A stretch of DNA of 64,000 bases from Oligoflexales bacterium (GTDB lineage Bacteria > Myxococcota_A > UBA9042 > DTJE01). Made by a program: the position numbers and the translations under genes. Under the pieces are notes generated by a model. It was not told the DNA's origin. It saw only the letters and a list, made by a program, of their open reading frames with translations, and searched no databases. The stretch lies in assembly GCA_012840965.1 (NCBI GenBank), contig DUVQ01000121.1, positions 14,907 through 78,906 on the forward strand, given 5' to 3'. Shown piece by piece: positions 9,151 to 48,261 of the stretch; positions within the stretch are counted from its first letter, which is position 1; every line of letters begins with the position of its first letter.

Positions 9151-10029
9151 ATGCCCGATGCGTTTGACGGCGTGCCTTTATGGATTCTAAAAGCCACTGT
9201 ACTGGCTTTGGGGGCTACCTTTGGGTCTTTTGCGAACGTTGTGATTTACAGGTTGCCTCTAGGCAGATCGATTGTGTATCCCGGGTCGGCGTGTGCAAAA
9301 TGTGAAACGCCCATCAAGTGGTTCGACAACATTCCAGTCATCAGCTACATGCTGCTTTTGGGCAAGTGCAGGGTATGTAAGGACCCAATCTCGATAAGGT
9401 ATCCATTAATTGAGCTTTCAGGTGCTGTTCTATCGCTGGCCTGCCTTTTACTGGCCATAAATGTTGGGTTTGAAGTCGCTGATTTGGCAGGCTTGGCGGT
9501 CCTGTGGGCGTTTTTCTTCGCATTTTGCTTCCTGTTACTGGTCATCACCTTTATCGATCTTGAGCATTGGTGGATTCCACCCTCACTGGTTCTTCCGGGA
9601 ATAGCGATTGGGTTGCTGACCAATATTTTGCTTGGAGATTTGACTAGGGTAAGTTGGCTTGACGCATTGATTGGAATGGTCGCCGGAGCCTTGCCCATAT
9701 GGCTGATTCGAGTCTTGTATTTCAAGATTCGAGGCCATGAAGGTATGGGGCTTGGCGACGTTTTTCTGATGGCAATGGTCGGAGCGATGCTTGGCTATGT
9801 CGCCTTACCTTTTGTGCTACTTGCAGCATCGATTCAAGGCTTGATAGTTGCGATTCCCTTGTCGCTAAAAAAGAAGATATCGGACCCACCATGGGAACCT
9901 GAAGAAGGCCATGAACACCAGGAAACAATGGGCAAAACAGCTGTCCCATTTGGTCCTTTCATAGCGTTAGGTGCTCTTCAGTGGCTGTTCTTTGGCGATG
10001 CAATAGCCGCACTGCTGTTTCAGTTCTAA
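9151..10029 (+). CDS. pilD: Type IV prepilin leader peptidase / N-methyltransferase (A24 family, PilD)
   Basis: N-terminal Zn tetra-Cys motif (CAKC...CRVC). The family's conserved residues are present (FIDLEHWWIP, GLGDVFLMAMVGAMLG). Membrane protein of 292 aa. Confidence 0.8.
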   Translation: MPDAFDGVPLWILKATVLALGATFGSFANVVIYRLPLGRSIVYPGSACAKCETPIKWFDNIPVISYMLLLGKCRVCKDPISIRYPLIELSGAVLSLACLLLAINVGFEVADLAGLAVLWAFFFAFCFLLLVITFIDLEHWWIPPSLVLPGIAIGLLTNILLGDLTRVSWLDALIGMVAGALPIWLIRVLYFKIRGHEGMGLGDVFLMAMVGAMLGYVALPFVLLAASIQGLIVAIPLSLKKKISDPPWEPEEGHEHQETMGKTAVPFGPFIALGALQWLFFGDAIAALLFQF

Positions 10030-10056
10030 AAGTCTCTGAGACTAATCGGACAATTT

Positions 10057-10109
10057 GGGGGAAGGGGAAGGGGCAGGGACAGGGGAAGGGGCAGGGACGG
10101 GGACGGGAA
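10057..10109. repeat. G-rich hexamer tract (GGGGAA/GGGGCA/GGGACA)n, G-quadruplex-capable, intergenic
   Basis: Direct reading: gggggaaggggaaggggcagggacaggggaaggggcagggacggggacggg. Confidence 0.8.
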
Positions 10110-10116
10110 GACGTTT

Positions 10117-10182
10117 GTGCTGATCTGCAGGATTTGGAGCTAAAAGAAGGTCGAGAGGGCACCCAGCAACATGGTCCGGGGG
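10117..10182. repeat. Copy A of a ~65 nt conserved intergenic element (GTGCTGATCTGCAGGATTTGGAGCTAAAAGAAGGTCGAGAGGGCACCCAGCAACATGGTCCGGGG)
   Basis: About 95% identical to 18419-18484. Both copies directly abut G-rich hexamer tracts. Confidence 0.75.
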
Positions 10183-10477
10183 CAATCCTGGAGGGCGCTA
10201 TCGGGAGTTGCCGGGACCCGACGTCTTTTGGTTGACATGAAGGCCGCGAAGCGGCCCGTCCGGGCCAAAAGGATAAACGTGCACGTTAGCAATCGTATAT
10301 TTCGCCCGGACGATGTCACCAAGAGACAGTCGGGATGGCTACGGGAGATTTTGGGTCCGGAAGGATGCCCCCGGACATGTTTTAAAACTCTAACGAAGAG
10401 ATAAAACGCCAAAAAGAACAAACAATCAGGAGTCATAACAAGCTAGTTAGCAGGATCTGCAACAGGGTCAGTATCAG

Positions 10478-10502
10478 AGGCGGGGACAGGGGATGTGGGG
10501 GG
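10478..10502. repeat. G-rich tract (GGCGGGGACAGGGGATGTGGGGGG), intergenic
   Basis: Direct reading. Lies just downstream of the minus-strand HEAT gene stop. Confidence 0.6.
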
Positions 10503-10508
10503 ATTGCG

Positions 10509-12125
10509 TTAGCGGCGCTGGAGTGCGAAGAGTAGGGGTTCGAGTTCGTCGACCCAGAAGCTGCCGCCCTTTGCTTCCTTGTCAGCCTGGATCAAGCGCT
10601 CGACGTCCTTGACGGTAGATTTGTCACCGAGACGCCAAATCCCAATGATCAGGAAGCGTCGCAGGTCGGTCTCTTTTGGGTTCACAGTTGGATAGAAGGT
10701 CAACAGCGCTTCCAGCGCCTTCCTACTGTGATCACCCTTCACGTTACTAAGCAAAATGGCCGCCTTCTGGGAAGCAACGATATCTTCACCCTTAAGCACG
10801 CCAATCAGGCAATCAACGTCGTTCTTAGCGCACTTTTGAAGTACCGAGATCATTGACTGGAACTCGCCAGACTCTTCACCAGTGGTTCGCGCTACAACCA
10901 GCTCACTCTTGTCAGCCTTCAGCATCTTTTCCAGGGCAGGCAGTTCATCCCATGAAATCCCCATAGCGACCGGTTTCAGCAATGGGGCGCGGAAGGTCTG
11001 CAGCTTGGAGGTTTTGTAGATATCCAAAAGGGCAGGCATTCCAGCATAACCTGGGAGCATACCCAGAGCAGTAGCCGTATCGAGGCGAAGCTTAGCGTCA
11101 TTATCTGGGTTAACGATGATCTCTTTAAGCTGAGGGATAATCTCAGGAGAACCAACGTTCCACAGCGCCAGCATGGCCATCGTGATGCGGTTTTGCTGAG
11201 TAATCTGCCAGGAACGAGTGACACGGTCATCAACACCAACAGGTGGGTTCAAAGGCTTTGCAAGGCTCTTTGCGATGGCCGGCGCAGCTGAAATCTCACG
11301 AAGATCACCCAAAACCTGATAAATCTCGGGGCCATCTTGCCATTCCCATTCATTCATCCCAAGGCGACTAGCCGTATTCGCCAGTTCCTCGATCATTGGA
11401 CCGTATTTGGAACGGTCATTAGCCTGCACCGCAACCAAAGGCTCCACAACCTTCGGCCCGATCCTCGCAAGAGCCTTCCTGGCGGCGGTGTACATCTTTT
11501 CACCACGCTGGGTCTTTATAAACATCCCCATGATCAGGTGAGGGATTGCCTCTTCAGAACCAATCTCTCCAAGAAGTCTGGCAGCAGCAGCATTGACCTG
11601 GATACCCTGCAGGTTCGGGTCATTACGCAGTAACTGAATAAACAGTTTTTCGTGCTGCTTCAGGTTATCCTTATCAATCTTGGCCAGAGCATTGATTGCA
11701 TTATGTCTGGCCTTCGGTGCATCACTGGTTGTCAACACCTCGATCAGCGGTTTGCGCAGCTCAGGGATTGCAAAATCCTCTGCGACGGCTGCAGCCTGAG
11801 GCGCAGAATCCGGATCCCGCAGTGCAGCGGTCAGCAGTTCCACTGAGGCAAGAGGCTCATTGATGTTCTTTACAGCGGCAAGGATGTCATCCTTGAACTG
11901 GCTGGTTGGGAAAAGCTCTAATAGAATCGGTAAGCTGTCAACACAGTGCAGCTCACCGGATTCTTTAATCGCCTTTTTGCCATTGACGGGGCTACGCAGC
12001 AATTTAGCCCAGCCATTACACGTGGTCGGAGTGCCTTTGACGCATGCAGTTTCAAGCGTAAGGGCAAACGCCACTGTCACGGTTAACAGAACGACTAGCG
12101 GTTTTCTATCCACGGTGTCCTCCAC
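10509..12125 (-). CDS. HEAT/PBS-lyase-like repeat protein, secreted
   Basis: 538 aa. Repeated helical A-rich units (AAARLLGEIGSEEAIPHLI...). N-terminal hydrophobic signal. Confidence 0.55.
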   Translation of the reverse strand: MEDTVDRKPLVVLLTVTVAFALTLETACVKGTPTTCNGWAKLLRSPVNGKKAIKESGELHCVDSLPILLELFPTSQFKDDILAAVKNINEPLASVELLTAALRDPDSAPQAAAVAEDFAIPELRKPLIEVLTTSDAPKARHNAINALAKIDKDNLKQHEKLFIQLLRNDPNLQGIQVNAAAARLLGEIGSEEAIPHLIMGMFIKTQRGEKMYTAARKALARIGPKVVEPLVAVQANDRSKYGPMIEELANTASRLGMNEWEWQDGPEIYQVLGDLREISAAPAIAKSLAKPLNPPVGVDDRVTRSWQITQQNRITMAMLALWNVGSPEIIPQLKEIIVNPDNDAKLRLDTATALGMLPGYAGMPALLDIYKTSKLQTFRAPLLKPVAMGISWDELPALEKMLKADKSELVVARTTGEESGEFQSMISVLQKCAKNDVDCLIGVLKGEDIVASQKAAILLSNVKGDHSRKALEALLTFYPTVNPKETDLRRFLIIGIWRLGDKSTVKDVERLIQADKEAKGGSFWVDELEPLLFALQRR

Positions 12126-12236
12126 AAGTGATTTGTTGTCACTGAAAGTACCTTATGGAGTATAGTTTGACCGTTGCCACAAGGTCAAGAGGGTTGGCCA
12201 CGTCTATTGACCTTTATTTTTGCGTTGAGGGGGAGA

Positions 12237-12788
12237 ATGAGCCCAAAAAACATGTGGAGAAAGGCCGTTCCGGGCATTTTATTCCTGTCGCTGCTTTCTT
12301 GTGGCGGCGGTCAGACTGCTGGACTGGATGTCGACAGCCTTCTGTTTGGTCTTGAAAAATGCCAGGAAAATTCGGATTGCCAGACAAATATGTGCTCTAT
12401 GGGAATGTGTTTGGGGTTTTTAACCGTAAGTTCCGACCTGCAGCGTGCCGAAATAGGGGCCGTTTTTGGTAAAGCGGCGCCAAGAGCACGAGAGCGCTTG
12501 ATTGACGCTTTGGCTGTGGTGCTTGAAGACGGGGATACATCAAGTGTAATCAGGGCCAGAGCCGCGGATGGGTTGGGTTATTTAGGTGGTGACAGGGTAG
12601 AACAGATGTTGCAGCCAGCCTTGGCTGAACACTCGGAAATTATAAGATTTTTTGCAGCGCGTTCCCTGCATGCCTTGGGTAATTCAGTTGGTACCGAGAC
12701 TCTGCTGACCTTCAAAGACCATGAATCTGAGGCCGTAAGGATAATGACCGAGTTAGCACTGGCTGATCACGGCGAAAACAGGAAGTAA
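12237..12788 (+). CDS. HEAT-repeat lipoprotein
   Basis: Lipobox LLSCGGG after the internal ATG with a GGGGGAG RBS. HEAT-like units (ADGLGYLGGDRVEQMLQPAL, RFFAARSLHALGN). The ORF track start at 12174 is probably too early. Confidence 0.5.
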   Translation: MSPKNMWRKAVPGILFLSLLSCGGGQTAGLDVDSLLFGLEKCQENSDCQTNMCSMGMCLGFLTVSSDLQRAEIGAVFGKAAPRARERLIDALAVVLEDGDTSSVIRARAADGLGYLGGDRVEQMLQPALAEHSEIIRFFAARSLHALGNSVGTETLLTFKDHESEAVRIMTELALADHGENRK

Positions 12789-15685
12789 AACGTGTCTTTA
12801 CCCTTGTCTGCGAATCCGTGCGCGTAGCCTATTTTTAAAGTTGCATCTCTGGCCAAGAACAGATTTATTCCCAAAGATAGTTCAGCCCCAATTCCCCAGT
12901 TAAATCCGCTTGAGCTGTCATTTGTCCAGGTCCTACCCAGATCCGCGAAGACGGCTCCATGGAGGTAGCGTGCAGACAGTGGAATTGTGCCCAAGCTGCG
13001 AAAGATTGGAAAAATTGGGAAGCGATACTCAAGATTGCCAAGAAAGTAAGAGTTTCCCACGAAGGCGTTGTGACCGTAGCCACGTAAGTAACGCCCAGAT
13101 AGTGGCTGATTGTTAATAATTGCCATCACCATGTCTTGTACTGGAAAACCGCCTTGTCCGTAGACTTCTATCGTTCCTATGTCCCCAATAGAAGTCGCTC
13201 CAGATGTAAGCAGGGCCAGCACATGACCATGTCCCCAGGGCATTGGTACATATCCGTCAAGGGTGCCAGTGATTGTTAAGGATTTTCCATCACTTCCAAG
13301 CCATTTGTGGCGCCCTCCAACAGATATGCCACCAGAGAGGCCGCGCTCGGTTGATACAGATTTCGCCCAGGAACGCAGCCAAGAAAAAGACGCAGAAGCG
13401 GTAAGGCCAGCCAGTCTGCGGCTTTCTGGACGAGAAGGTGTGGTAGATGCCGGTTCGTGGGCTTTAGGTATTTCGCCAATCATTTTCCAGCGTATGGAGT
13501 AGCCCAAAGAAACCCTGAATGAAACCACCCGACCAGGAATTGGTAAGGAAGCTCCGGCGTTTATCATCCAGTTCCTGGCGTCCACTTCCTTGATTTGATC
13601 ATCAATTATGGCGCGGTCTGTTCCATTCCAGGTCACAACATCAAGGGATAAATTAGGAAAAAGGCCAAAGTACTTGTACTGTAAAGCCCCGTAGGGTGTA
13701 ATCCTCGTCAAATCAGCATCAAAAGCGGCCAAAAAATAGTGACGGTCTAAAACATCAGAACCAGTAAATTCAAAGCCAAGCCTGTTATTACCCCCGCTTG
13801 AAAAAGCCCACCTTGGTATTATGGAGCGCGGCTTTAACGATGTCGCTCGATAAGGAGTGGCGTCGCCATCGAAGTCAGTTTCCATTGGGAAAGGTGGTGG
13901 AGTTTGGGCTGATTCTAAAGGGCTGTCCGCATGGGGAGCCTTGGTGTCATCTATGGCGATCCAATTCTGTGGCTCCAAGGGTAACATCGCCAAATCATAG
14001 CCTTTTGGGCCATATGCACTGTAAACAATCGAAGTGCCAGCTGGAGAAACGGCCGGCCAAAAGGCGCCTCCAGGTTCCCTTGTAATTCTAAATAGTTGTC
14101 CCGTTGCTAATTCAAGCGCGAAAAGGTCAAAAACACCTTCATGGTCGGAAGAGAAAACTATGAACCTTCCATCAGGCGTGGGCACTGGGTCGCGATCAAG
14201 AAATTTATCGTTTGTTAACTGTTGCAATTGGCCAGTTTCAAGGTTTACTGACCATAAGTCCCATTGGCCGTCTTTTGCACCTGTAAAAACGAGATGCTCT
14301 GATCCTGGCAAAACAACTGGGTCACCCAAATCGCTGAATAATCCAGGTTGGATGATGACTTTCTCACTTTCTGAAGGTTTGTCTTCGCCCACCGCAAATG
14401 AGACTAGCGATGCTTGATCATAGTCTGCCCGAACGTATGCAATGGTCGTGGCATTAAACTTGTCATCAAAGACGGCCAAATCCCTGGCCCTGCTTCTGGA
14501 GGTCAGCTTTTTGAGACCATCTTTTAATTCAAAGATCTCGCCATATTGATAAACCAGACGATTCCAACTGGTTGATGTTGAAAAGATGCGACCACGGTAT
14601 GCAGCAACTGAATGACATCCCCCATCGCAGTCGACCAAGCGCTGTGGCTTTTTATTAGGCCTTTCAATGTCGAGCTGGAACAAACCAGACATGGAACGCC
14701 CGTCGGATTTTACCCACACTACATGTCTTGGGTCCTTGAACACGGCTCGCCCATTGAATTCGCCGCCTTTAGTAAGTCTTTCACCTTGGATTAGACCCAG
14801 TTGCGTTAATTCGGCCAAGTGCTTTTCACTGTCTGCGATAACCTGCGCGTGAAATTCACTCCACAACGAGTAAAAAGTGGTTCCAAAGTGACGTTTTGCC
14901 ACTGTGTTCAGCAAAAACGGTATCACGTTCGCGCCGTAGTTTTTAATGAATTTGGTAATCGTCTCTAGCCCAAACTTTTGTGCCAAAAATTCAAAGAAGA
15001 AGCCTCCAAACAGGTATGGGGAAGTGCCTCTTGGCCAGATGATGGGAGTTACTGTAAGTTGTGATAATTGTGGAAAGGTCCCACCCAAGGCTGCCTGGCG
15101 AAGCATCATTTTGTACTGGCTGGAGCCAAGTCTGCCTCCATCTGGAAGTTGGGACTCCATAAATACTGCCAAGCCTTCGATGAACCATTTCTGGATTGCC
15201 CCGTTTGGCAGAAATGTTTTTCCGATGACCTTGTTGACAAATCCTGGGATCTTGGACACTTCGTCCATGTGCACGATGTGGGTGTATTCGTGGACAACTA
15301 GTGATGAAAGATAATCTGAAAAAACGCCCAACTCTGAGTCTGGCCCGGGTGGCGCAGCAAAAAGTCGAATCTTGTCGTATGGATGAACTGAGGCCCAACC
15401 ATTAGCCGAATCAACATCATCCCAAAGTGATATTTCGACGAGCTGACTTGGGTACAGTCCCAAGAGTTCGCCAACCCACTGGTGCGAGGAATTGGCAATG
15501 CTCATCACCCTGCGAGCCATAAGTTCGCCACCTTGATAAAAGTGAACTTTAAAGTGCTCTGAACTCAGGGTTTTCCAACGTATATTTGGGTCAGTGCCGG
15601 CAAAAGCTTTGGCTGGTGCCAGCAAGAGGATTACCGCCAATATGGCAAGTAAGGCAAAACTGCGTGGTGATGCGATGTTGCTCAC
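12767..15685 (-). CDS. Large secreted protein with an HExxH motif, TolB-like beta-propeller repeats and a C-terminal beta-rich domain
   Basis: 972 aa. Signal peptide. HEYTHIVHMDE. Repeats of the form DG-x-IVFSSD...DLF. C-terminus ends in aromatic-rich beta strands. Confidence 0.45.
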   Translation of the reverse strand: MSNIASPRSFALLAILAVILLLAPAKAFAGTDPNIRWKTLSSEHFKVHFYQGGELMARRVMSIANSSHQWVGELLGLYPSQLVEISLWDDVDSANGWASVHPYDKIRLFAAPPGPDSELGVFSDYLSSLVVHEYTHIVHMDEVSKIPGFVNKVIGKTFLPNGAIQKWFIEGLAVFMESQLPDGGRLGSSQYKMMLRQAALGGTFPQLSQLTVTPIIWPRGTSPYLFGGFFFEFLAQKFGLETITKFIKNYGANVIPFLLNTVAKRHFGTTFYSLWSEFHAQVIADSEKHLAELTQLGLIQGERLTKGGEFNGRAVFKDPRHVVWVKSDGRSMSGLFQLDIERPNKKPQRLVDCDGGCHSVAAYRGRIFSTSTSWNRLVYQYGEIFELKDGLKKLTSRSRARDLAVFDDKFNATTIAYVRADYDQASLVSFAVGEDKPSESEKVIIQPGLFSDLGDPVVLPGSEHLVFTGAKDGQWDLWSVNLETGQLQQLTNDKFLDRDPVPTPDGRFIVFSSDHEGVFDLFALELATGQLFRITREPGGAFWPAVSPAGTSIVYSAYGPKGYDLAMLPLEPQNWIAIDDTKAPHADSPLESAQTPPPFPMETDFDGDATPYRATSLKPRSIIPRWAFSSGGNNRLGFEFTGSDVLDRHYFLAAFDADLTRITPYGALQYKYFGLFPNLSLDVVTWNGTDRAIIDDQIKEVDARNWMINAGASLPIPGRVVSFRVSLGYSIRWKMIGEIPKAHEPASTTPSRPESRRLAGLTASASFSWLRSWAKSVSTERGLSGGISVGGRHKWLGSDGKSLTITGTLDGYVPMPWGHGHVLALLTSGATSIGDIGTIEVYGQGGFPVQDMVMAIINNQPLSGRYLRGYGHNAFVGNSYFLGNLEYRFPIFPIFRSLGTIPLSARYLHGAVFADLGRTWTNDSSSGFNWGIGAELSLGINLFLARDATLKIGYAHGFADKGKDTFYFLFSP

Positions 15686-15753
15686 GCGATAAAGATATCA
15701 CATGGCTCGTGGATCAACGTGCTCAAATTGAGCATTGCCAGGAATAACGTGGC

Positions 15754-16152
15754 TTATTCCTGTGCGGCCTCAGGTGCGGCTTCCTTTGCAGGTTCGGCAG
15801 CAGGTTCGGCAGCAGGTTCGGCAGCAGGCTCTGCGGCAGGCTCTGCAGCTGGTTCGGCAGCAGGCTCAGCGGCTGGTTCGGCAGCTGGTTGTTCCTCGGC
15901 TTTAGGGGCCTCTGCTGGCGGCTGAACCCCTGGTTCCTCGACCACAACGTTGGACAGTTCTATGAACTTGTCTAAATTAGCCAAGTAGTTAGCGCATTCG
16001 TCTCTGGCAGTCAGTTGCCCTGCTTTTTCACAGGCCAGACTTGCTGCATCCTTATCACATACCGCTTTCTTAAGCTCGTTACATTCGTTTTTGCCACACC
16101 CAGTCGCAAAACCTATTGCAACAACACCAGCCAGGATCAATAACCTTTTCAT
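15754..16152 (-). CDS. Small lipoprotein with a C-terminal (AAEP)n low-complexity tail
   Basis: MKRLLILAGVVAIGFATGC lipobox. GGAG RBS 9 nt upstream of the internal ATG. Tail is PAAEPAAEPAAEP... Confidence 0.55.
   Translation of the reverse strand: MKRLLILAGVVAIGFATGCGKNECNELKKAVCDKDAASLACEKAGQLTARDECANYLANLDKFIELSNVVVEEPGVQPPAEAPKAEEQPAAEPAAEPAAEPAAEPAAEPAAEPAAEPAAEPAKEAAPEAAQE
15788..15895. repeat. 12 bp tandem repeat (GCAGGTTCGGCA and variants, about 9 units) inside the lipoprotein gene
   Basis: Direct reading. Encodes the (AAEP)n tail on the minus strand. Confidence 0.8.
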
Positions 16153-16393
16153 CACGATGTACTCCAAAGAAGACGTTCCATCGTATCACAACCGCCCGAA
16201 CTTAAAAGTCCCTTATCTCTGTAGTTTCAAGCGAAAAATACCCCATTTGAGGTTCTTTGTAAGGTTTTTTTCGGGCCCTCGCTTCCATACCAAGTGACCA
16301 CCAAGTAAAACAAAAGTAGACATGAGGACGTATTTGTTCGTTCTATTTAGGGCTATCCACGTCATCTGATGGCGTGCTAGTATCGCGTAAGTT

Positions 16394-17800
16394 TTGGCGG
16401 AGCCTAAGGTGGATCTGGTTGAACTGATCAAGGCTGCAGGTGTTGTTGGTGCTGGTGGGGCTGGATTTCCTACCCATGTCAAGGCCGCTGCAAGGGCGGA
16501 AATATTGATTGCCAACGGTGCTGAGTGCGAGCCTTTACTTGTTACTGACCAATGGACTGTGATTAGTCACGCCAAGTTGATTGCTGAAGGCATGAGAGCC
16601 CTTGGTAATAGGGTGGGTGCGAAACGCCTGATTTTTGGCGTGAAATCCCATTATACCGACGTGATACAGGCGATGACTCCCTTTTTGGATGGGGAATATC
16701 CCATCGAAATAGGTCTGATCGGGGATTTTTATCCTGCCGGTGACGAGCAGGTTTTGGTACACGAACTGACTGGGCGCGTGGTGCCCGAGGGTGGAATTCC
16801 TTTGGATGTGGGGGTGGTAGTTAGCAATGTGGCAACCCTTGCGAACATCAGGCGTTCCATTGACGGCCAGCCTGTTATTCGCAAGGAAGTGACTGTAACA
16901 GGGCTGGTCCGTAACCCAGGTGTCTATGAAGTCCCAATTGGTATTTCAACTGCGGAAGTCGTGGCAGCCGCGGGAGGGGTAACTGACGAAAACGTCGCAA
17001 TCATCGAAGGTGGCCCCATGATGGGCATGCTGATTGAAGACTGGTCCAAACCTGTAACAAAAACCACTGGCGCTTTTTTGGTGTTGCCTGCTGACAACGA
17101 GGTGGTGATTACCAGACGGCGTCCTCATGCTGCTACTTTTCGCCAGGCCCTTGCTGTCTGCTGTCAGTGCCGCATGTGTACTGACCAGTGTTCAAGGTTC
17201 TTGCTTGGGCATCGTATCGCGCCTCACCTTGCGATGAGGGCCTTGCTAGCTGGTGGGGCTTATGATTTGGATGGGGTTGATGCTGAGGGCAGGCGTTTTG
17301 GTCAGCCCAGCGGAGACGACATCCCATTTGAAGTCAGGGCGATGGGCTACTTGTGTTCCCAGTGTGGAATCTGTGAGGTCTGGTCTTGTCCCCTTGGTTT
17401 ATCTCCAAGGTACGTTTTTGGGGACTATAAAGCTGGGATGATTGCAAGAAAACAGCCAAATCCCTTGAAAAATCGACCAGAAACCGCGCTAGAACAGCAA
17501 GCTTGGCTCAGGCTGCCCAAGCCAAGACTCGTAGAGAGGCTTGGACTGAAAGACTATCTATTGCCATACAAGGGCACTACCGTTCCAGTTGCAGATCCTT
17601 GGGAAGTTAACATCAGGCTAAAACAGCATGTCGGAGCCCCAGCCATTCCCATTGTAAAAGTGGGCCAAGCAGTTTCAGCAGGTCAATGCATTGCTGAGAT
17701 TCCGACGGGAGCGCTTGGGGCCAGAGTTCATGCATCCATGACAGGAACGGTTGCAGCGATAACTGACCAGCACATAAAGATTGTTAGGCAAGGTGTCTGA
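16394..17800 (+). CDS. pduS: PduS-like BMC-associated flavo-FeS oxidoreductase (RnfC/NqrA-type NADH-binding domain plus two ferredoxin-type 4Fe-4S motifs; cobalamin-reductase family)
   Basis: Gly-rich nucleotide motif GVVGAGGAGFP. Motifs CCQCRMCTDQC and CSQCGICEVWSCP. Lies immediately upstream of the PduT-like gene. The true start may be the GTG at 16409 (GGAG RBS). Confidence 0.7.
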   Translation: MAEPKVDLVELIKAAGVVGAGGAGFPTHVKAAARAEILIANGAECEPLLVTDQWTVISHAKLIAEGMRALGNRVGAKRLIFGVKSHYTDVIQAMTPFLDGEYPIEIGLIGDFYPAGDEQVLVHELTGRVVPEGGIPLDVGVVVSNVATLANIRRSIDGQPVIRKEVTVTGLVRNPGVYEVPIGISTAEVVAAAGGVTDENVAIIEGGPMMGMLIEDWSKPVTKTTGAFLVLPADNEVVITRRRPHAATFRQALAVCCQCRMCTDQCSRFLLGHRIAPHLAMRALLAGGAYDLDGVDAEGRRFGQPSGDDIPFEVRAMGYLCSQCGICEVWSCPLGLSPRYVFGDYKAGMIARKQPNPLKNRPETALEQQAWLRLPKPRLVERLGLKDYLLPYKGTTVPVADPWEVNIRLKQHVGAPAIPIVKVGQAVSAGQCIAEIPTGALGARVHASMTGTVAAITDQHIKIVRQGV

Positions 17801-17826
17801 TCATTTAATTAAGAGAGGTCCTACAT

Positions 17827-18378
17827 ATGACTTCACTACCGGCGATTGCTTTGATTGAGCTGACTTCCATTGCTCGTGGCGTAGTAGCCTCAGATGCCAT
17901 GGCTAAAACGGCCCCAGTCAAGCTACTTCAGTCCCAGACGATATGTCCAGGCAAATACCTGATAGTCGTAGGCGGCGGCGAAGACCCTGTAAGAGAGGCT
18001 TTTCAGGTCGGCCTACACTACGCTGGCCAGTATCTAGTCGACCACCTTGTAATTCCAAACTTACATCCCCAAGTGCTACCAGCTCTGGCAGCGATGCAGC
18101 CTCTCCAAAAGCTGGAGTCAGTCGGAATCATAGAGACATTCTCTGCAGCAGCAACCGTTTTAGCCGCCGACGCAGCCTGCAAGGCCGCAGAGATCACCCT
18201 AATCGAGCTGCGCCTAGGCAACGGACTAGGCGGAAAAGCCTACCTGACCCTATCAGGCGAACAGTTCTCAGTAGAAGCCGCCCTAAGCGCCGGAGTCGAT
18301 GCAATAGCATCCGGCCTGTTGCTAAGGTCCGAGCTAATCCCAGCCCCCCACCAAGACATGGGCAGGGCTTTGTTGTAG
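17827..18378 (+). CDS. pduT: PduT-like tandem-BMC-domain shell protein (BMC-T) with a conserved cluster-binding Cys
   Basis: Two canonical BMC domains (IALIELTSIARGVVASDAMAKTAPVKLL...; VGIIETFSAAATVLAADAACKAAEITLIEL). The Cys in TICPGKY aligns with the Salmonella PduT [4Fe-4S] ligand (TICPGKF). Confidence 0.8.
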   Translation: MTSLPAIALIELTSIARGVVASDAMAKTAPVKLLQSQTICPGKYLIVVGGGEDPVREAFQVGLHYAGQYLVDHLVIPNLHPQVLPALAAMQPLQKLESVGIIETFSAAATVLAADAACKAAEITLIELRLGNGLGGKAYLTLSGEQFSVEAALSAGVDAIASGLLLRSELIPAPHQDMGRALL

Positions 18379-18412
18379 AGGCGGGGACAGAGGCAGGGAC
18401 AGGGACAGGGAG
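18379..18412. repeat. G-rich hexamer tract (GGCGGGGACAGAGGCAGGGACAGGGACAGGGAG)
   Basis: Direct reading. Adjacent to conserved element copy B. Confidence 0.75.
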
Positions 18413-18418
18413 ATGATC

Positions 18419-18484
18419 GTGGTGATCTGCAGGATTTGGAGCTAAAAAGAGGTCGAGAGGGCACCCAGCAACATGGTCCGGGGC
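18419..18484. repeat. Copy B of the ~65 nt conserved intergenic element
   Basis: GTGGTGATCTGCAGGATTTGGAGCTAAAAAGAGGTCGAGAGGGCACCCAGCAACATGGTCCGGGG, compared with 10117-10182. Confidence 0.75.
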
Positions 18485-18623
18485 AGGGCCAGGGAGACGT
18501 TTCTACAGGTTTTGAACATAAGCTCTGCATTTATGAACGAATCGTTGACAAGCTAGCCGATATGATGCATCATACTCGGCCCGGACTACTTTTCCGCCGG
18601 GAATCAGCCGAAAAAAAAAGAGG

Positions 18624-18651
18624 TTGACATTTACCTTCATGGGTATAGAAT
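18624..18651 (+). promoter_or_regulatory. Candidate sigma70 promoter of the str operon: -35 TTGACA (18624-18629), 16 nt spacer, -10 TAGAAT (18646-18651), preceded by an A9 tract
   Basis: Consensus -35, good -10, about 58 nt upstream of rpsL. Confidence 0.5.
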
Positions 18652-18708: not shown

Positions 18709-19092
18709 TTGATGCCGACTATCAATCAACTGGTAAGAAAAGGGCGGACGATCCGCAGACTTAAAACTAAGTCGCCAGCTTTGCAGTCTTGCCCAATGCG
18801 CCGAGGTGTCTGCACGCGTGTCTACACAACCACGCCAAAGAAACCAAACTCGGCTATGCGAAAGGTTGCTAAGGTTCGTCTGACTAACGGTTTTGAAGTC
18901 ATCGCCTATATTCCAGGCGAAGGTCATAACCTTAGTGAACACTCCCAGGTGATGGTCCGTGGCGGTAGGGTCAAGGACCTTCCTGGTGTTCGTTATCACA
19001 TTATTCGTGGAACGATGGATGCGAAGGGTGTGGATAAGCGTCGTCGTAGTCGTTCTAAGTATGGCGCCAAGCAGCCCAAGGGCGTGAAGTAG
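18709..19092 (+). CDS. rpsL: 30S ribosomal protein S12
   Basis: [12 protein letters not shown]... with the conserved PKKPNSA motif. Confidence 0.95.
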
Positions 19093-37964: not shown

Positions 37965-38180
37965 CCTTTAACCCTCGTCGTCAGGGACAAGGATTCTATA
38001 GTCACAGCGCTAGTTGGTCAAACGCGGGCGAGTGCACCAGGATTATGTATGGTTAAATAGGGTGTTAAGCTTGATTGACAAAGATTCGCCGAGTCGCTAG
38101 CCTTCGCTGTATTTGTTTTTCTTTACCACATGGTAACAGCGCTTTTGAGCCGGAGTTTTGCCGTAACAAGGGGAAAGATA

Positions 38181-40721
38181 ATGCAAGATAAACTAAAAAG
38201 GGGCTTGGTGCCAGTGCTTGTGCTGGTGGGTGCACTGATTGCGTTGGGTTGCGGTGGCGGTAACGACGATGCAGTGTTTGGCAATGGCGAGATCGAGGGT
38301 GACGAGCGGTGTGACGGAGCTGAATTGAACGGTCAGACTTGCATTACCCAGGGCTTTGCTGGGGGCGAGCTTGCTTGTACTGCTGCCTGTCAGTTCGACG
38401 CTAGCGGCTGCACTGCGCCTTCGGCCGACTGCGGCAACGGCAAGATTGACGATGGCGAGCAGTGTGATGGCGAGGAATTGAACGGTCAGACTTGCATTAC
38501 CCAGGGCTTTGCTGGTGGTGATCTTGCTTGTACTGCTGCCTGCCAGTTCGACACCAGCGGCTGTACTGCGCCGCCAGTCGACTGTGGCAACGGCAAGATT
38601 GACGATGGCGAGCAGTGTGACGGCGAGGCATTGAACGGTCATTACTGCACGGATCTCGGCTTCGCTGGCGGTGATCTTGGCTGTTCTGCTGCCTGCCAGT
38701 TCGATACCAGTGGTTGCATCTTGGAGCCGGTCGATTGTGGTAACGGCAAGATCGACGATGGCGAGCAATGCGATGGCGAGGCATTGAACGGTTATTCCTG
38801 CGGGGATTACGGCTTCGCTGGCGGTGATCTTGGCTGTACTGCTGACTGTCGGTTCGATACCAGTGGTTGCACCTTGGAGCCGGTCGACTGTGGTAACGGC
38901 GAGATCGACGATGGCGAGCAGTGTGATGGCGAGGCATTGAACGGTCAGACCTGTGCGGATCACGGTTTCGCTGGCGGTGATCTTGGCTGTACTGCTGCCT
39001 GCCAGTTCGATACCAGTGGTTGCACTGTGCCGTTGGAGGACTGTGGTAACGGCGAGATCGACGATGGCGAGCTGTGCGATGGCGAGGAATTTGACGGTAA
39101 GACCTGCGCGACCCAAGGCTTCGACGGCGGTGATCTTGGCTGCACTTCGACTTGTCAATTCGATACAAGCGCCTGTTTCGTCTGTGGTGACGGTGAGGTT
39201 GGCGGTAACGAGAGGTGCGATGGTGACGATTTGAACAATCAGACTTGTACGTCCCAAGGCTTCGACGGGGGCCAGCTTCGTTGCACCATTGACTGCCAGT
39301 TCGATACAAGCGCCTGTGTCGTCTGCGGCGACGGTAGGGTCGGCGCTGGAGAAGAATGCGACAGCGCGAACTTGAATGGCCATGATTGTGTTAGCCAGGG
39401 CTTTGATGGGGGAAGGCTCGCCTGCACCGCCGACTGTGAGTTTGATACCAGCAATTGTAGCACCTGTGGTGACGGCGTTATCGGGATTGGCGAGCAGTGC
39501 GACGGTGTGGAATTGAACGGTCAGACCTGTGTATCGCAGGGCTTTGTCGACGGCAAGCTTGGCTGTACCGACACTTGCCAGTTCGACACCACTGCCTGCA
39601 GCGAGATTCCACCCGAGTGTGGTAACGGTAGGGTCGACGGTTTCGAGCAGTGCGACGGTGAAGATTTGAATGGTGAGACTTGCGAGACGCTGGACCTCAT
39701 TGATGGCAACCTTAGGTGTACCGATGATTGCCGGTATGACACTAGCCGCTGCGCCTTCGACTGCACCGCGGTATCGCTTGGGATGTTTGATGGCACGCCC
39801 ATCACGCTCACAAATCAAGACAGCTGCTCATCAGGCACTACGCTCTACGATGCAAAAGGCACTGGCAGGACCTGTACGGGCTGGGAGACCGCCGGCTCCG
39901 AGATCGTCTACAGCGTGAGCATTCCGCCAGGCGAGGGGATTTTCGTAGTCATGGATGCCATTGATAGTTTCAACGAGGCGCTTTGGGTGACGATGTCGTG
40001 TCGCGATACCATCGGCTTGCATTGTATCGTAGGGTCAGATGTCCAAGTCAGAGAACCTGAGGAGGTTTCTGTCAGGAACACCTCGAACAAAGCCTTGACC
40101 TACCACATCGTGGCCGACGCCCGCGACGGCTGCGGCAAGTTCAACCTGTCCATCTCAAGGCTTGGTGACTGCGGTGATGGTGTTCGCGAAGGTCCCGAAC
40201 AGTGCGACGGCCGCGACTTTGGGGTACATACTTGTGAGAGCATAGGCTTTGCTCCCGGTACTTTGAGATGCAACTCGGATTGCGAGTTCGATTTTAGCCG
40301 CTGTGGCTGCAAGGCTATCGACCTGGGGGTGTTTGACGGCACGACCATCGCACTGCAAGACCAGGGTGGCTGCCCAGGCTCCAAGCTTTACGATGTGGGC
40401 GGTGACGGCGGAAGCTGCCTTGATGCGCTATTTAGAACGCCCGGTGCAGAGGTCCTATACAAGCTGACACTTCCGGCCGGCGACACGGTCAAAATCGTTT
40501 CGACGTCCCACGGATTCGACGAGACGCTTTGGGTGACTACGTCGTGCTTGGATATCGGCGGCTCGCAGTGTGTTGTTGGTGCTGCGAAGTGGAATCAGCG
40601 TCCTGAGGAGGCCATTCTTTCGAACAACACAGGCAATGCCGCGACATACTACATCGTGGTCGACGCTAAACAACCCAGTGGTTGCGGTAAGTTTGATCTT
40701 AACATTTCAAGGCATCCGTAA
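38181..40721 (+). CDS. Lipoprotein with ~11 tandem Myxococcus-type cysteine-rich repeats (CGNGxIDDGEQCDGEELNGQTC...C-x-FD-SGC) and two C-terminal PPC-like beta domains
   Basis: Lipobox LIALGCGGG. The ~48 aa repeat units carry 6 Cys each, and the first units are nearly identical at DNA level. Start taken at the internal ATG with a GGGGAAAG RBS. Confidence 0.7.
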   Translation: MQDKLKRGLVPVLVLVGALIALGCGGGNDDAVFGNGEIEGDERCDGAELNGQTCITQGFAGGELACTAACQFDASGCTAPSADCGNGKIDDGEQCDGEELNGQTCITQGFAGGDLACTAACQFDTSGCTAPPVDCGNGKIDDGEQCDGEALNGHYCTDLGFAGGDLGCSAACQFDTSGCILEPVDCGNGKIDDGEQCDGEALNGYSCGDYGFAGGDLGCTADCRFDTSGCTLEPVDCGNGEIDDGEQCDGEALNGQTCADHGFAGGDLGCTAACQFDTSGCTVPLEDCGNGEIDDGELCDGEEFDGKTCATQGFDGGDLGCTSTCQFDTSACFVCGDGEVGGNERCDGDDLNNQTCTSQGFDGGQLRCTIDCQFDTSACVVCGDGRVGAGEECDSANLNGHDCVSQGFDGGRLACTADCEFDTSNCSTCGDGVIGIGEQCDGVELNGQTCVSQGFVDGKLGCTDTCQFDTTACSEIPPECGNGRVDGFEQCDGEDLNGETCETLDLIDGNLRCTDDCRYDTSRCAFDCTAVSLGMFDGTPITLTNQDSCSSGTTLYDAKGTGRTCTGWETAGSEIVYSVSIPPGEGIFVVMDAIDSFNEALWVTMSCRDTIGLHCIVGSDVQVREPEEVSVRNTSNKALTYHIVADARDGCGKFNLSISRLGDCGDGVREGPEQCDGRDFGVHTCESIGFAPGTLRCNSDCEFDFSRCGCKAIDLGVFDGTTIALQDQGGCPGSKLYDVGGDGGSCLDALFRTPGAEVLYKLTLPAGDTVKIVSTSHGFDETLWVTTSCLDIGGSQCVVGAAKWNQRPEEAILSNNTGNAATYYIVVDAKQPSGCGKFDLNISRHP

Positions 40722-42450: not shown

Positions 42451-42614
42451 AGACAAATGCAGCGAAAAGGTACATTAATTCAGGTAAAAGTCAATCTGAA
42501 ATTTTAAAACTGGGCATTTTTGCGTCCTTCATAATTTGACTAGACTTTGACTTAAACATGTGCGGTAATCACCAAAGTTGCTTGAATAGGTTATTGGTTC
42601 CGAAGGGGTGGCCA

Positions 42615-44660
42615 ATGAAAGTCTTGAAGTTCTTAGGCGCTTTGTCGTTAATGGTTGCCATTAGCGCAATGATTAGTTGTAGCGGCTCAGACCTGCCGCC
42701 CGACGTATCACCGGATGATTCCCCAGCCTTGGACGATGGTTCGCAGGATGATGGTTCTGATACTGCAGATCCACGTCCAGACTTGGATGACGACGCTGAC
42801 ACTGACACCGAAACTGACAGCGACGCGCCATGCGAGCAAAAGTGCGGTACTCGCGTCTGCGGCCCCGATCCGGTGTGTAAAGAGTCATGCGGGACGTGTG
42901 ATGCCCCATATGCCTGCAATGCTGACGGCCAATGTGAGTGCAAGCCACAGTGTGGTGACCGTCTCTGTGGCCCCGATCCGGTTTGCGAGAAGTCGTGCGG
43001 CGAGTGCGCACCTGGTCATAGTTGCGACTTAAATGGTCGGTGCCAGAAAGATGGCTGTGAAAAGGTATGTGGTAATCGCGTCTGTGGTCCCGATCCAGTT
43101 TGTCATCAGTCCTGCGGGTCCTGTGAGGCGCATGAAAAATGCAATGCTGATGGCCAATGCGAGTGCGTACCCCAGTGTGGTGAACGTAAGTGTGGCATTG
43201 AGCCAGTTTGTCAAACGTCTTGTGGCGTTTGTGAAGCTCCAAACAAATGCAATGAGCAAGGCCAATGTGAGTGCATCCCAGAGTGCGGCGAGCGCAAGTG
43301 CGGTGTTGACCCAGTTTGTGGAACGAAATCCTGTGGTATTTGCGGATTCTACGAAAAATGCAACGACCAATTTCTATGTGAGTGTGTGCCAGATTGCACC
43401 GGCCGCCAGTGCGGCCTTGACCCGATTTGTGGCACTGAGACCTGTGGTTACTGTGAGGCGCATGAGAAATGCAATTTGGTAGGTATATGTGAGTGCGTGC
43501 CCCAGTGTGGCGACCGTAAGTGTGGTATTGAGCCGGTTTGTCAAACGTCTTGTGGCAATTGTACCCCTCCAAACGAATGCAATGAGCAAGGCCAGTGTGA
43601 GTGCTCTCCAGACTGCCGCGGGCGCGATTGCGGCGTAGATCCAGTGTGTGGGCAATCCTGCGGCACTTGTCCTGAAAACTCCATTTGCAATCTTGATGGA
43701 CAATGTTTTGCACCATCGATTGTCTGCTCGGATGACTGGTGCTTGATTCCAGCAGGCACATTCGAGATGGGGGCTCCACAAGGCGAACCTGAATACCGTT
43801 TTGATGAGGGGCCAGTTCATTCAGTGACGATTAGCCGCTCTTTTTACATCAAACAGACTGAAGTAACTCAAGGGGAATGGCAGTCATTGATGGGAAATAA
43901 TCCATCAAATTTTCAGTCCTGTGGCAATAAGTGCCCAGTTGAGATGGTGTATTGGTACGACGCTGTCGCATACGCTAATGCCCTTTCTGAAACGCAAAGC
44001 CTTGAAAGTTGTTACACGTTAAGCAATTGCACAGGTGCACCTGGTACCGTCGGCTATAAATGTACGGTCGAGTTTAATGGTCTTGGCTGCACAGGTTATC
44101 GTTTACCTACCGAAGCTGAGTGGGAATATGCAGCGCGTGCAGGCGTTACTGGCCCAAGGTATGGCGACATTGATGCCATCGCTTGGCACAGTGGTAACAG
44201 TTTGAATAAGACTCGTGTAGTGGCTACAAGGACTGCTAACGCCTGGGGATTAAACGATGTGCTTGGCAATGTCTGGGAGTGGGTAAATGACTGGTATGGG
44301 CCAAACTACTACAGCAGCTGTTCATCGGGTTGTTCTGACCCAATAGGAATCGACGGTGGCAGTATGCGGGGGTATCGTGGCGGATCTTGGATGTCAAGCT
44401 GGAGGCAATTACGCCTGATGATGGCTCAGATACGACTCGCCCAGACATTGAGCCAATGTGTGAGCAAAACTGTGGTAATCGTGAGTGTGGTCCAGATCCG
44501 GTGTGTAAAGAGTCTTGTGGGACGTGTGATGCCCCATATTCCTGCAATGCTGATGGCCAATGTGAGTGCGAGCAAGAGTGCGGTGATCGCGTCTGTGGTC
44601 CTGACCCAGTTTGCGAAAAGTCCTGTGGCACCTGCGAAGCTGGTCATAGTTGTGACTTAA
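42615..44660 (+). CDS. Paralog 1: lipoprotein with acidic linker, 8 octa-Cys repeats (CG-R-CG-DPVC...CG-C...C-x3-GQCEC) and an FGE/SUMF1-like domain. The C-terminus is truncated or frameshifted into paralog 2.
   Basis: Signal/lipobox MISCSGS. FGE-domain motifs (WCLIPAGTFEMG, RLPTEAEWEYAARAG, RGGSW). After RGGSW the reading frame runs out-of-frame through the paralog 2 N-terminal region to a stop at 44660. Confidence 0.55.
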   Translation: MKVLKFLGALSLMVAISAMISCSGSDLPPDVSPDDSPALDDGSQDDGSDTADPRPDLDDDADTDTETDSDAPCEQKCGTRVCGPDPVCKESCGTCDAPYACNADGQCECKPQCGDRLCGPDPVCEKSCGECAPGHSCDLNGRCQKDGCEKVCGNRVCGPDPVCHQSCGSCEAHEKCNADGQCECVPQCGERKCGIEPVCQTSCGVCEAPNKCNEQGQCECIPECGERKCGVDPVCGTKSCGICGFYEKCNDQFLCECVPDCTGRQCGLDPICGTETCGYCEAHEKCNLVGICECVPQCGDRKCGIEPVCQTSCGNCTPPNECNEQGQCECSPDCRGRDCGVDPVCGQSCGTCPENSICNLDGQCFAPSIVCSDDWCLIPAGTFEMGAPQGEPEYRFDEGPVHSVTISRSFYIKQTEVTQGEWQSLMGNNPSNFQSCGNKCPVEMVYWYDAVAYANALSETQSLESCYTLSNCTGAPGTVGYKCTVEFNGLGCTGYRLPTEAEWEYAARAGVTGPRYGDIDAIAWHSGNSLNKTRVVATRTANAWGLNDVLGNVWEWVNDWYGPNYYSSCSSGCSDPIGIDGGSMRGYRGGSWMSSWRQLRLMMAQIRLAQTLSQCVSKTVVIVSVVQIRCVKSLVGRVMPHIPAMLMANVSASKSAVIASVVLTQFAKSPVAPAKLVIVVT

Positions 44661-46120
44661 ATGGCCAGTGTCAGGAAGACGGCTGTGAAAAGGCGTGCGG
44701 TGAACGCGTCTGTGGTCCCGATCCGGTCTGTGGGCAGCCTTGCGGCGACGATTGTCCAGCTCATCACAAATGCAACGACGAAGGCCAATGCGAGTGCGTG
44801 CCTCAGTGTGGCAACCGTAAGTGCGGTGATGATCCGGTCTGTGGGCAGCCTTGCGGCGACGATTGCCCAGCTCATCACAAATGCAACGATGATGGACAAT
44901 GCGAGTGCCAGCCTGAGTGTGGCGGGCGTGAGTGCGGCTATGATCCGGTCTGTGGGCAGCCTTGCGGCGACGATTGCCCAGCTCATCACGAATGCAACGA
45001 TGATGGCCAATGCGAGTGCCAGCCTGAGTGTGGCACCCGTGAGTGCGGCGATGACCCGGTTTGTGGGCAGCCTTGCGGCGATTGCCCAGCTCATCACGAA
45101 TGCAATGATGGCCAATGTCAGTGCGTACCCGACTGTTTGGGCCGTGAGTGCGGCCTAGATCCGGTCTGTGGTGTGCGGCCTTGTGGTATATGCACTGCTC
45201 CAGAGACCTGCTCATCCCAAGGAGTGTGTTGTGAACGAAACTGCACCGGTCGCCAGTGTGGTCCCGATCCTTCTTGCGGTGACTCCTGCGGTAGTTGTCC
45301 AATGTACTTGGTTTGCGAACCTAACAGTGGCCAGTGCGTTCCCCCGTATGTTGATTGCAATTCAGGATGGTGTTTTATCCCAGCAGGTACCTTTTTGATG
45401 GGTTCTCCTGAAGATGATCCAGAGCGTTATAACAATGAAGGTCCGACTTACATAGCGACGATTACCCGCGATTTTTATATGAGTCAGACGGAAGTAACTC
45501 AGGAACAGTGGGAGTCGGTGTTTCAGAACAATCCGTCTAGCACAACTGAATGTGGAGTAGATTGTCCTGTTGAGACTGTAAATTGGTTTGAAGCTGTTGC
45601 TTACGCGAATGCTCTTTCCGACAAGGAAGGTCGTGAAAAGTGTTACACGATAGAGGGTTGTTCTGGTAGTCCTGGAACGGGCCTCAAAAACTGTACAGTA
45701 ACCTATTCTAATCTGCTTGACTGCAAAGGTTATCGTTTGCCAACTGAGACAGAGTGGGAGTATGCAGCACGTGCAGGTACCTCTGAGCCTAGGTACGGCG
45801 AGGTGGACAGGATAGCTTGGCATGTAGGCAACAGTCAACGCACCTATCATCCAGTAGCTAAACTGTTACCTAATGCTTGGGGATTATATGACATGCTTGG
45901 CAACGTTTGGGAGTGGGTGCATGACTACTATGATTTCTACAATACCAGTATTTCCGGTGGGATAGACCCGTTAGGACCCTCGTGGGGCGCTGGCCGGGTT
46001 AGACGTGGCGGTGGTTGGATCTTCGATGCCAGGAACTCGCGGGCAGCTGACCGCAGCTACGACACGCCTGATACACGTAGAAGTTACATTGGCTTGCGCA
46101 TTGTAAGGACTGCGCCGTAG
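44387..46120 (+). CDS. Paralog 2: octa-Cys repeats plus FGE/SUMF1-like domain. It lacks its own signal peptide, and a TTG start is inferred.
   Basis: Its N-terminus DDGSDTTRPDIEPMCEQNCG aligns with the post-signal acidic region of paralog 1. Complete FGE-like domain ending GLRIVRTAP. Confidence 0.55.
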   Translation: MDVKLEAITPDDGSDTTRPDIEPMCEQNCGNRECGPDPVCKESCGTCDAPYSCNADGQCECEQECGDRVCGPDPVCEKSCGTCEAGHSCDLNGQCQEDGCEKACGERVCGPDPVCGQPCGDDCPAHHKCNDEGQCECVPQCGNRKCGDDPVCGQPCGDDCPAHHKCNDDGQCECQPECGGRECGYDPVCGQPCGDDCPAHHECNDDGQCECQPECGTRECGDDPVCGQPCGDCPAHHECNDGQCQCVPDCLGRECGLDPVCGVRPCGICTAPETCSSQGVCCERNCTGRQCGPDPSCGDSCGSCPMYLVCEPNSGQCVPPYVDCNSGWCFIPAGTFLMGSPEDDPERYNNEGPTYIATITRDFYMSQTEVTQEQWESVFQNNPSSTTECGVDCPVETVNWFEAVAYANALSDKEGREKCYTIEGCSGSPGTGLKNCTVTYSNLLDCKGYRLPTETEWEYAARAGTSEPRYGEVDRIAWHVGNSQRTYHPVAKLLPNAWGLYDMLGNVWEWVHDYYDFYNTSISGGIDPLGPSWGAGRVRRGGGWIFDARNSRAADRSYDTPDTRRSYIGLRIVRTAP

Positions 46121-46161
46121 TTTCTTGTGGAGAAGACCATAGTTTTGTTAAGGAGTATTAA

Positions 46162-48159: not shown

Positions 48160-48261
48160 TCGTTTGGCCCAAAGCCTCCCTTTGCCCCAAAACACCCTAA
48201 TATTCACCATATTTGCAGCCTTGTAGTTGGAATTCCCCTTGTTAACGAGTATCCTTCGCGC

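Follow-up and report, generated by a model that had tools for sequence, protein, structure and literature searches.

Bacterial MITEs, such as Correia/NEMIS in Neisseria and Nezha in cyanobacteria, are short, non-coding, intergenic, multi-copy repeats that form long hairpins. The PATEs of IS200/IS605 and the REP/REPIN-RAYT systems have neither inverted ends nor target duplications, are inserted in a fixed orientation and occur in dozens to hundreds of copies. Some insertion sequences target dispersed extragenic repeats, namely IS1397 and ISKpn1, which target BIMEs, and IS621 of the IS110 family, which targets REPs; these are autonomous and carry a transposase gene. For ERIC/IRU and the pneumococcal BOX repeats, we know of no mobilizing enzyme that has been identified. 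At the level of simple sequence repeats (SSRs), Xanthomonas and Nostoc carry abundant intergenic quadruplex-forming tracts with the units GGGNATC and GGGGA(C/T)T (Rehm et al. 2015, PMC4692102).

The sequence analyzed here, a 65-mer that occurs twice in a window of 64,000 nt (the whole stretch of DNA that was analyzed), had been put forward in a first-pass annotation as a candidate small RNA, protein-binding site or miniature mobile or repeat element. The 65-mer is the left-end module of a larger element and not a unit of its own. With high probability, it belongs to a non-coding, non-autonomous interspersed repeat family of 180-560 nt that is mobile; in behavior, the element resembles MITE, ERIC and REPIN-type repeats but shows neither the clear inverted ends nor the target duplication that define MITEs. 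Because the element is dispersed at unrelated sites and is present or absent between strains, it is very probably not a gene-specific regulator, either of pilD or of the str operon, its neighbors in the window.

Two copies in the window

The duplication reported in the first-pass annotation, two copies of ~65 nt at ~95% identity, is real: positions 10117-10182 and 18419-18484 match at 62-63 of the 65 bases (~95%), where chance predicts no such pair. The blocks GATCTGCAGGATTTGGAGCTAAAA and GGTCGAGAGGGCACCCAGCAACATGGTCCGGGG each have two exact occurrences in the window, all on the + strand, and a match was obtained in 0 of 100 shuffles. The two copies (A and B, respectively) lie in direct orientation, 8302 nt apart, and differ at three or four positions, i.e. 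C/G at 10120/18422, GAA/AGA at 10146-10148 and the final base. Their likeness reaches into the adjoining tract, for a total of 107 nt at 86% identity (family D20). Each copy is located 3' of a G-rich hexamer tract (10058-10107 and 18377-18411) and is followed by G runs, so that this part of the initial description holds by both Tandem Repeats Finder and sequence inspection.

Copy A lies, as first described, in a gap of ~480 bp after pilD, more precisely, in the 479 nt that separate pilD (9151-10029, +; peptidase A24) from a HEAT-repeat gene of convergent orientation (10509-12125, -). Copy B occupies the spacer between a BMC shell gene (17827-18378) and rpsL (18709-19092). Its annotated position upstream of the str-operon promoter is borne out by the promoter scan, which places two promoter-like sites for rpsL, at 18545-18573 and 18624-18651, 60-140 nt downstream of copy B. 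The genes directly upstream of the str operon (16394-18378) encode an RnfC/Nuo51-like flavoprotein and a shell protein with tandem BMC domains; another gene of the BMC type (CsoS1D_N) is found at 649-1296.

Anatomy of the element

The 65 nt were taken as the unit of repetition; this sequence is indeed duplicated, but the conservation of copy A with the rest of the family runs from ~10109 to ~10463. The canonical element is non-coding and ~355 nt long, and copy A (~10109-10463) is a complete example located between two G-rich (CAGGNN)n tracts. A terminal repeat stands at either end; the left one is followed by a unique module and by an imperfect palindrome of ~215 nt composed of nested hairpins, and an A-rich module precedes the right one. 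The features of copy A, with the source of each assignment in parentheses, are the following.

10058-10108, +: left G-rich hexamer tract with GGGGAA, GGGGCA and GGGACA units (Tandem Repeats Finder, 10058-10107)
10109-10140, +: left terminal repeat, AGACGTTTG-TGCTGATCTGCA-GGATTTGGAGC (consensus of left ends)
10141-10167, +: left unique module, TAAAA-RRR-GGTCGAGAGGGCACCC-W-GC, which forms the core of the 65-mer and is not palindromic (>100 distinct copies)
10168-10381, +: central imperfect palindrome of nested hairpins, ending in CAUGUUUUAAAA (RNAalifold, single-sequence fold, size classes)
10382-10440, +: right A-rich unique module (AAACTSTAACGAAGAGATAAAACGCCAAAAAGAACAAAC...), predicted to be unstructured (conserved in 91 paired elements; no RNAalifold pairs)
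10441-10463, +: right terminal repeat (AGCTAGTTAGCAGGATCTGCAAC), matching the left one as a direct repeat (comparison of end consensuses)
10464-10505, +: right G-rich tract, AGGGTC AGTATC AGAGGC GGGGAC AGGGGA TGTGGG GGGA (sequence; a G-rich tract at 10465-10525 with the right-end module upstream)

The left tract contains two regular-expression matches to the G-quadruplex (G4) motif, at 10057-10078 and 10082-10102, and the right tract stops 3 nt short of the stop codon of the convergent HEAT-repeat gene. The 65-mer begins at 10117, within the left terminal repeat, which has the consensus GAYGATYG-TGCTnnnnGCA-GGATTTGGAGC and contains the mini-palindrome TGCTnnnnAGCA. The left unique module is nearly invariant in over 100 distinct copies except for the RRR triplet and W, a conservation that is overstated to the extent that it was forced by the search pattern. 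The GGCCGC-GAA-GCGGCC hairpin (10242-10256) and the TTGACA box (10232-10237), initially listed as features of the gap, are both present but are internal parts of the ~355-nt element: the former is one inner hairpin of the central palindrome, and the latter is a variant peculiar to copy A, most copies having AGCTGACA instead.

The right terminal repeat has the consensus ATGCTAATTAGCAGGATCTGTAGC. When the consensuses of 70 left and 63 right ends are compared, the shared stretch of about 30 nt aligns better in direct orientation (20/32 identical) than in inverted orientation (17/30), and the TGCTnnnnAGCA mini-palindrome is present at both ends, also in direct orientation, with stems of only 4-5 bp. 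In the alignment of the copies, a hairpin is followed by UUUU(A). Overall, the elements fall into 16 length classes of 180-560 nt, in which 7 to 417 nt separate the left core from the right module; the classes differ by the loss, gain or exchange of whole nested hairpins, and both end modules are kept in 91 elements. No co-variation of left-end with right-end hairpin alleles was seen by eye.

A dispersed family

According to the first-pass annotation, its proposal would fail if only these two copies existed, with no expression, or if the similarity came from a segmental duplication that includes the flanking genes. Neither applies: the copies in the genome and metagenome scans greatly outnumber the original pair, and no duplication of the flanking genes is seen. 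When single genomes of 185,579 species were scanned for an exact 19-mer, 18 stretches matched; 16 of these are chance matches in AT-rich genomes, and two (L008 and L014) are true, both in species-representative bins from digesters that carry the deposited name ‘Bacteroidetes bacterium'. With a 21-base pattern, the metagenome scan yielded at least 115 contig stretches. The metagenome matches listed, together with the strain contigs, contain at least 145 instances with at least about 100 distinct sequences, and by clustering of their left flanks, the matches listed occupy at least about 77 separate intergenic locations on the chromosome. The material for comparison consists entirely of metagenome assemblies; searches of the viral, phage and plasmid collections gave no match. 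The host is an uncultured bacterium of anaerobic digesters. Its exact PilD protein is found in 201 data blocks, most of them metagenomes of sludge or anaerobic digesters, and also in the bin GCA_017995135.1. The deposited labels read ‘unclassified Bacteroidota' and ‘Bacteroidetes vadinHA17 sp.', an assignment to be taken with caution in view of the sigma-70-like rpsL promoter.

The neighbors of the element are unrelated to one another, with 104 Pfam families among 84 neighboring proteins of the matches listed. All four gene-orientation contexts are found, without a gene-orientation bias. A replication-strand bias was considered and rejected: the 26 vs 37 split relative to the flanking GC skew is not significant after orthologous sites are collapsed, the raw count being inflated by the redundancy of such sites. 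At several sites (L061/L063, about L061:3000-3300; L115:8500-8950; L095:6590-6640), elements are arranged head-to-tail in tandem with few tract units between them, and 20 nt left over from another left end stand before one of these copies.

Many of the matches are located at contig ends, inside the element, as expected where an assembler meets a multi-copy repeat. The family thus breaks metagenome assemblies and probably yields chimeric joins and gap artefacts, which matters for the bins of this digester-common organism. Gene calling is affected as well: several assemblies call an 84-aa gene (L002-L006:10831-11085, window 9981-10235) that starts inside pilD and runs through the G-rich tract and the left module, probably a spurious call caused by the repeat.

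G-rich tracts as host sites

Every copy of the element is embedded in a G-rich (CAGGNN)n hexamer tract that matches the usual G4 motif. Among the matches listed, the tracts adjoining an element are G-rich on the + strand of the element in 139 of 139 cases and on the opposite strand in none. In the loci examined, 111 tracts lie directly 5' of the left-end module, and in most copies GG[GA]A closes the left flank. The element is missing from another 144 G-rich stretches in these loci, as counted with a crude filter that also picks up some coding repeats.

Within the window, two more intergenic tracts, at 52431-52518 and 54594-54690, consist of (CAGGNN)n and GCGGGG units with G4 motifs and are free of the element. 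All four tract loci of the window are intergenic, with Tandem Repeats Finder periods of 6, 12 and 18. The canonical G4 motifs in the window are all on the + strand, on which the GC skew is positive throughout, and only one C-rich counterpart is present (48168-48197). The tracts flanking the element are tandem arrays of G-rich 6-9-nt units with four or more G runs, mainly intergenic, and judging from these sequence features, look like another case of quadruplex-forming bacterial SSRs.

Several ORFs of the window contain tandem repeats of their own. A 12-nt unit, GCAGGTTCGGCA, is repeated 8.6 times at 15788-15890, inside a small minus-strand ORF (15754-16167) with no Pfam match on record; the repeat is 60 nt longer in L003 and 12 nt shorter in L004. 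The large minus-strand ORFs 38130-40721, 42558-48159 and 52500-54569 contain cysteine-rich tandem repeats of 153, 108-111 and 165 nt, respectively; three paralogues lie in a row at 42.5-48.2 kb, and paralogues flank elements in L008, L068 and L075.

Variation between strains

At four pairs of orthologous sites in closely related strains (L033/L128, L112/L044, L129/L134 and L106/L119), one allele is filled and the other is empty. The flanks of these pairs are 94-99% identical, a single tract is kept in each empty allele, and the tract is often much longer in the filled alleles than in the empty ones. The median identity is 93% for copies at different sites and 99.5% for orthologous flanks. The empty sites could equally be the result of precise deletion between the two flanking tracts. 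Among the options originally listed, that of a miniature mobile or repeat element gains support from the many unrelated sites, the presence or absence between strains and the modular deletion derivatives.

In one case, the inner part of the element is inverted in place (L038:5567-5934 compared with L054:2900-3350 and L094:3440-3808). The breakpoints are at the terminal mini-palindromes and the size class differs, while neither the C-rich tract nor the terminal sequences outside the breakpoints have changed; L038 is the sole exception to the co-orientation of element and tract.

Both copies of the window are unchanged in five of the six retrieved strain contigs. The sixth contig (L005) contains copy A and a third, slightly divergent copy beside other genes. 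It is identical to the window over 10,047 nt and then shows 24 mismatches that start inside the element (L005:10958-11400; window 10230 onward); past the switch, there are different genes (comEC and an FtsX/ABC transporter) and another one-ended left module (L005:13740-13806). The switch at 10230 may reflect either recombination between copies or an assembly chimera. Given that it falls exactly inside the repeat, where an assembler could produce it, this contig was withdrawn as evidence of rearrangement or gene conversion. In the bin GCA_017995135.1, a run of N and a duplicated flank are located exactly at the left tract of copy B (L006:19255-19335); this is a scaffolding artefact, and the spacer between the BMC gene and rpsL is 227 nt longer in that bin.

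Copy B and one-ended remnants

Copy B consists of the left end of the element flanked by tract sequence.

18377-18411, +: left G-rich tract of copy B, starting at the stop codon of the BMC shell gene (Tandem Repeats Finder, sequence)
18412-18483, +: left terminal repeat and left unique module of copy B, ending at GGTCCGGGG (right module lacking)
18484-18497, +: short remnant of the right tract (CAGGGCCAGGGAGA), continuous with the internal G run of copy B (sequence)

There is no right-end module within 3 kb of copy B, which is identical in five strain contigs (L001-L004 and L006). At its junction, GGTCCGGGG is joined to CAGGG, and at least seven other sites are truncated identically, at the same base. 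All one-ended left remnants stop at GGTCC(G)GGG; one-ended right remnants were not seen among the retrieved loci. The canonical sequence at the breakpoint is GGTCC-GGGGGCA-ATCC, in which GGGGCA is one unit of the flanking tract. We infer that copy B is a dead one-ended remnant, the remainder of which was probably deleted by recombination between the internal GGGGGCA and the right-hand tract, or by slippage.

Alternative explanations

An improbable alternative to a mobile repeat is that the element is a multi-copy structured non-coding RNA gene, either a small RNA or a cis-acting stabilizer or terminator, the dispersal of which is secondary. REP and ERIC elements have been proposed to act as cis-acting stabilizers or terminators. 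The whole element folds at -148 kcal/mol (z = -7.0), the hairpin is followed by UUUU(A), and the non-palindromic modules are highly conserved. An RNAalifold alignment of 32 copies gives 74 pairs with a folding term of -99.9 kcal/mol, and 65 of these pairs, rarely broken, lie in the central palindrome (columns 63-277). The search for a conserved structure did find 65 consensus pairs over 32 copies, but covariation is minimal (three pairs with compensatory changes and a covariation term of -0.86), the same signal that a DNA palindrome yields, and a frequent allele, GGACGC, breaks the GGCCGC hairpin in about 12 of the 32 copies. There is no Rfam match at E<=10 in either region of the window, including the stretch around 10030-10508 for which an Rfam scan had been suggested, and none at gathering scores in the whole window; two other subtypes give only sub-threshold matches to microRNA hairpins, which occur on both strands and so mark a generic long hairpin. 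The promoter scan found no promoter-like site before or within the left module. The orientation with respect to genes is random, and the presence or absence between strains argues against an essential RNA. Discrete transcript ends at the left module and CAUGUUUU would favor a role as an RNA or terminator.

For the 65-mer itself, the small RNA option of the first-pass annotation is not supported: as a stand-alone structured RNA, it folds no better than shuffled sequence (z of +1.1 to +1.6) and has no Rfam match. Inspection of the 65-mer by eye and the promoter scan also yielded no convincing ribozyme, sigma-54 or sigma-70 motif, and a CUGAUC-like motif varies between copies.

It is less probable still that the element is a small protein gene, in which an ATG at 10171, in the 65-mer, opens a basic frame of 71-77 aa (MVRGQSWRALSGVAGTRRLL...), the 65-mer being the leader and start region. 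This ORF is intact in 25 of the 30 canonical copies, and synonymous to non-synonymous changes number 17/24, compared with 9/30 and 10/29 in the other frames, a modest enrichment. In other size classes, however, only 13-43 codons of the ORF are left, 207-type copies carry a frameshift, the stop position varies, there is no Pfam or NCBIfam match at E<=1, and in copy B and other one-ended remnants, the ATG is retained but opens no ORF. The frame follows one arm of the palindrome, in which chance alone can keep reading frames open while copies are young. This + strand ORF (77 aa) and a 98-aa ORF on the - strand were rejected as coding sequences, being not conserved across subtypes and without a family match.

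Finally, that the 65-mer is a gene-specific cis-regulatory or protein-binding site of pilD and the str operon, or one of two att-like repeats bounding an 8.3-kb island (10182-18419), is suggested by the two direct copies 8302 nt apart and by the location of copy B 60-140 nt upstream of the rpsL promoter-like sites but is the least likely reading, given that the same module is found at at least about 77 unrelated sites next to 104 Pfam families, that at least seven other sites share the truncation form of copy B, that no integrase or mobile-element genes lie between the copies and that the flanks outside the repeats are not duplicated. Precise loss of the 8.3-kb segment between the copies was not seen in the six strain contigs. 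The protein-binding option is not supported either: nothing links the 65-mer functionally to pilD or the str-operon promoter, and the neighbors of other copies belong to 104 Pfam families. Neither the gap after pilD nor the spacer before the str operon calls for a gene-specific regulator or small RNA.

Possible routes of spread

How the mobile repeat spreads can be approached from its ends and its orientation. No internal deletion has removed either end, the left junction usually falls after GG[GA]A, and the inversion lies exactly at the terminal palindromes; these points favor an enzyme that needs the ends in cis. That the element and its asymmetric target are strictly co-oriented speaks against cut-and-paste transposition of the classical DDE type and fits single-strand (HUH) transposition, site-specific recombination or homologous copying. 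Mobilization in trans by an orientation-specific recombinase or transposase, which would require both terminal repeats in cis and use a tract unit as the target, has about an even chance of being the route; the candidate enzymes would be a single-strand HUH transposase of the IS200/IS605 type or a site-specific recombinase.

No autonomous partner was found in the retrieved loci, where left and right modules are never paired at more than 600 nt and there are no extra pairs of terminal repeats around genes. The 1.1 Mb of flanking sequence contain neither a multi-copy coding sequence nor a parent IS with the same ends, and TnpA, RAYT and TnpB were not found, none of the 84 neighboring proteins scoring among the listed families. 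The 3 nt beside the two ends differ in the copies inspected by eye, i.e. there is no target-site duplication, with the reservation that the repetitive, heterogeneous tract units could hide a short one.

One neighbor encodes a protein of 684 aa (L102:5358-7412, -) that matches PF10136 (‘Site-specific recombinase') over the full length with E = 1.6e-221 and lies, at its end, 6 nt away from an element of the long type; in L082, this site is filled by another size class. As this is 1 of 84 neighbors, the juxtaposition is probably a coincidence, and by domain content the protein would be a candidate mobilizing enzyme.

A less likely but still sizeable alternative is transposase-free copying, in which breaks at G4 tracts would be repaired from a filled tract elsewhere, with the tracts as homology arms. 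The tracts on both sides of every complete copy, the often longer tracts in filled alleles and the failure to find a partner gene in the retrieved loci favor such break-repair copying.

More tentatively, the family might represent a previously undescribed kind of mobile element that homes, in a fixed orientation, into G4-forming hexanucleotide microsatellites, without inverted ends or target duplication. This could work in either of two ways: a recombinase would read the tract, or its single-stranded or quadruplex form, as the target, or else, the element would have no enzyme of its own and would be spread by quadruplex-triggered break repair with the dispersed tracts as portable homology arms (a ‘microsatellite hitch-hiker'). 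For a mobile repeat of any of these kinds, weak one-directional termination by the hairpin and U run, or other effects on neighboring genes, would be incidental. An oriented element in microsatellites predicted to form G4 structures, with no recognizable transposase, offers a system for testing such tracts as hot spots of insertion or recombination and also suits the question of how transposase-free repeats spread.

Comparison with known repeat families

The host tracts themselves resemble the SSRs of Xanthomonas and Nostoc (PMC4692102) in consisting of tandem G-rich 6-7-nt units with at least four G runs, in varying in length and in being mostly intergenic, near gene ends. They differ in the unit, a hexamer here (CAGGNN), and in the phylum; furthermore, the tracts described here host an inserted element, whereas PMC4692102 reports no such element.

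Like MITEs, the element is short, non-coding, multi-copy and interspersed (180-560 nt, at least about 77 sites, with an ORF that is not conserved), forms deletion or size subfamilies, varies in presence between strains and folds into long hairpins. Unlike MITEs, it shows no clear terminal inverted repeats, no target-site duplication and no related IS in the 1.1 Mb of flanks, and its orientation is strictly coupled to an asymmetric target. With ERIC/IRU and BOX, it shares a central imperfect palindrome, whole-segment variants and an A-B(n)-C-like build; it differs from these in having no sequence similarity to them, in its location in microsatellites and in its conserved non-palindromic end modules.

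A possible likeness to PATEs and REPINs lies in the small palindromes on the same strand near both ends and in what may be an oriented insertion beside a short target (left flank GG[GA]A), together with the absence of clear inverted ends and of a target duplication and with copy numbers in the dozens to hundreds. The co-orientation in 139 of 139 cases has to be read in the light of the fact that homologous copying would give the same pattern as oriented PATE-type insertion. In contrast to PATEs and REPINs, the stems at the ends measure no more than 4-5 bp, the total length far exceeds that of a REPIN, and there is no GC-skew bias (26 vs 37). Finally, as with IS1397, ISKpn1 and IS621, the element would home into a dispersed repeat in a fixed orientation, the target here being a tandem microsatellite rather than a palindromic unit.
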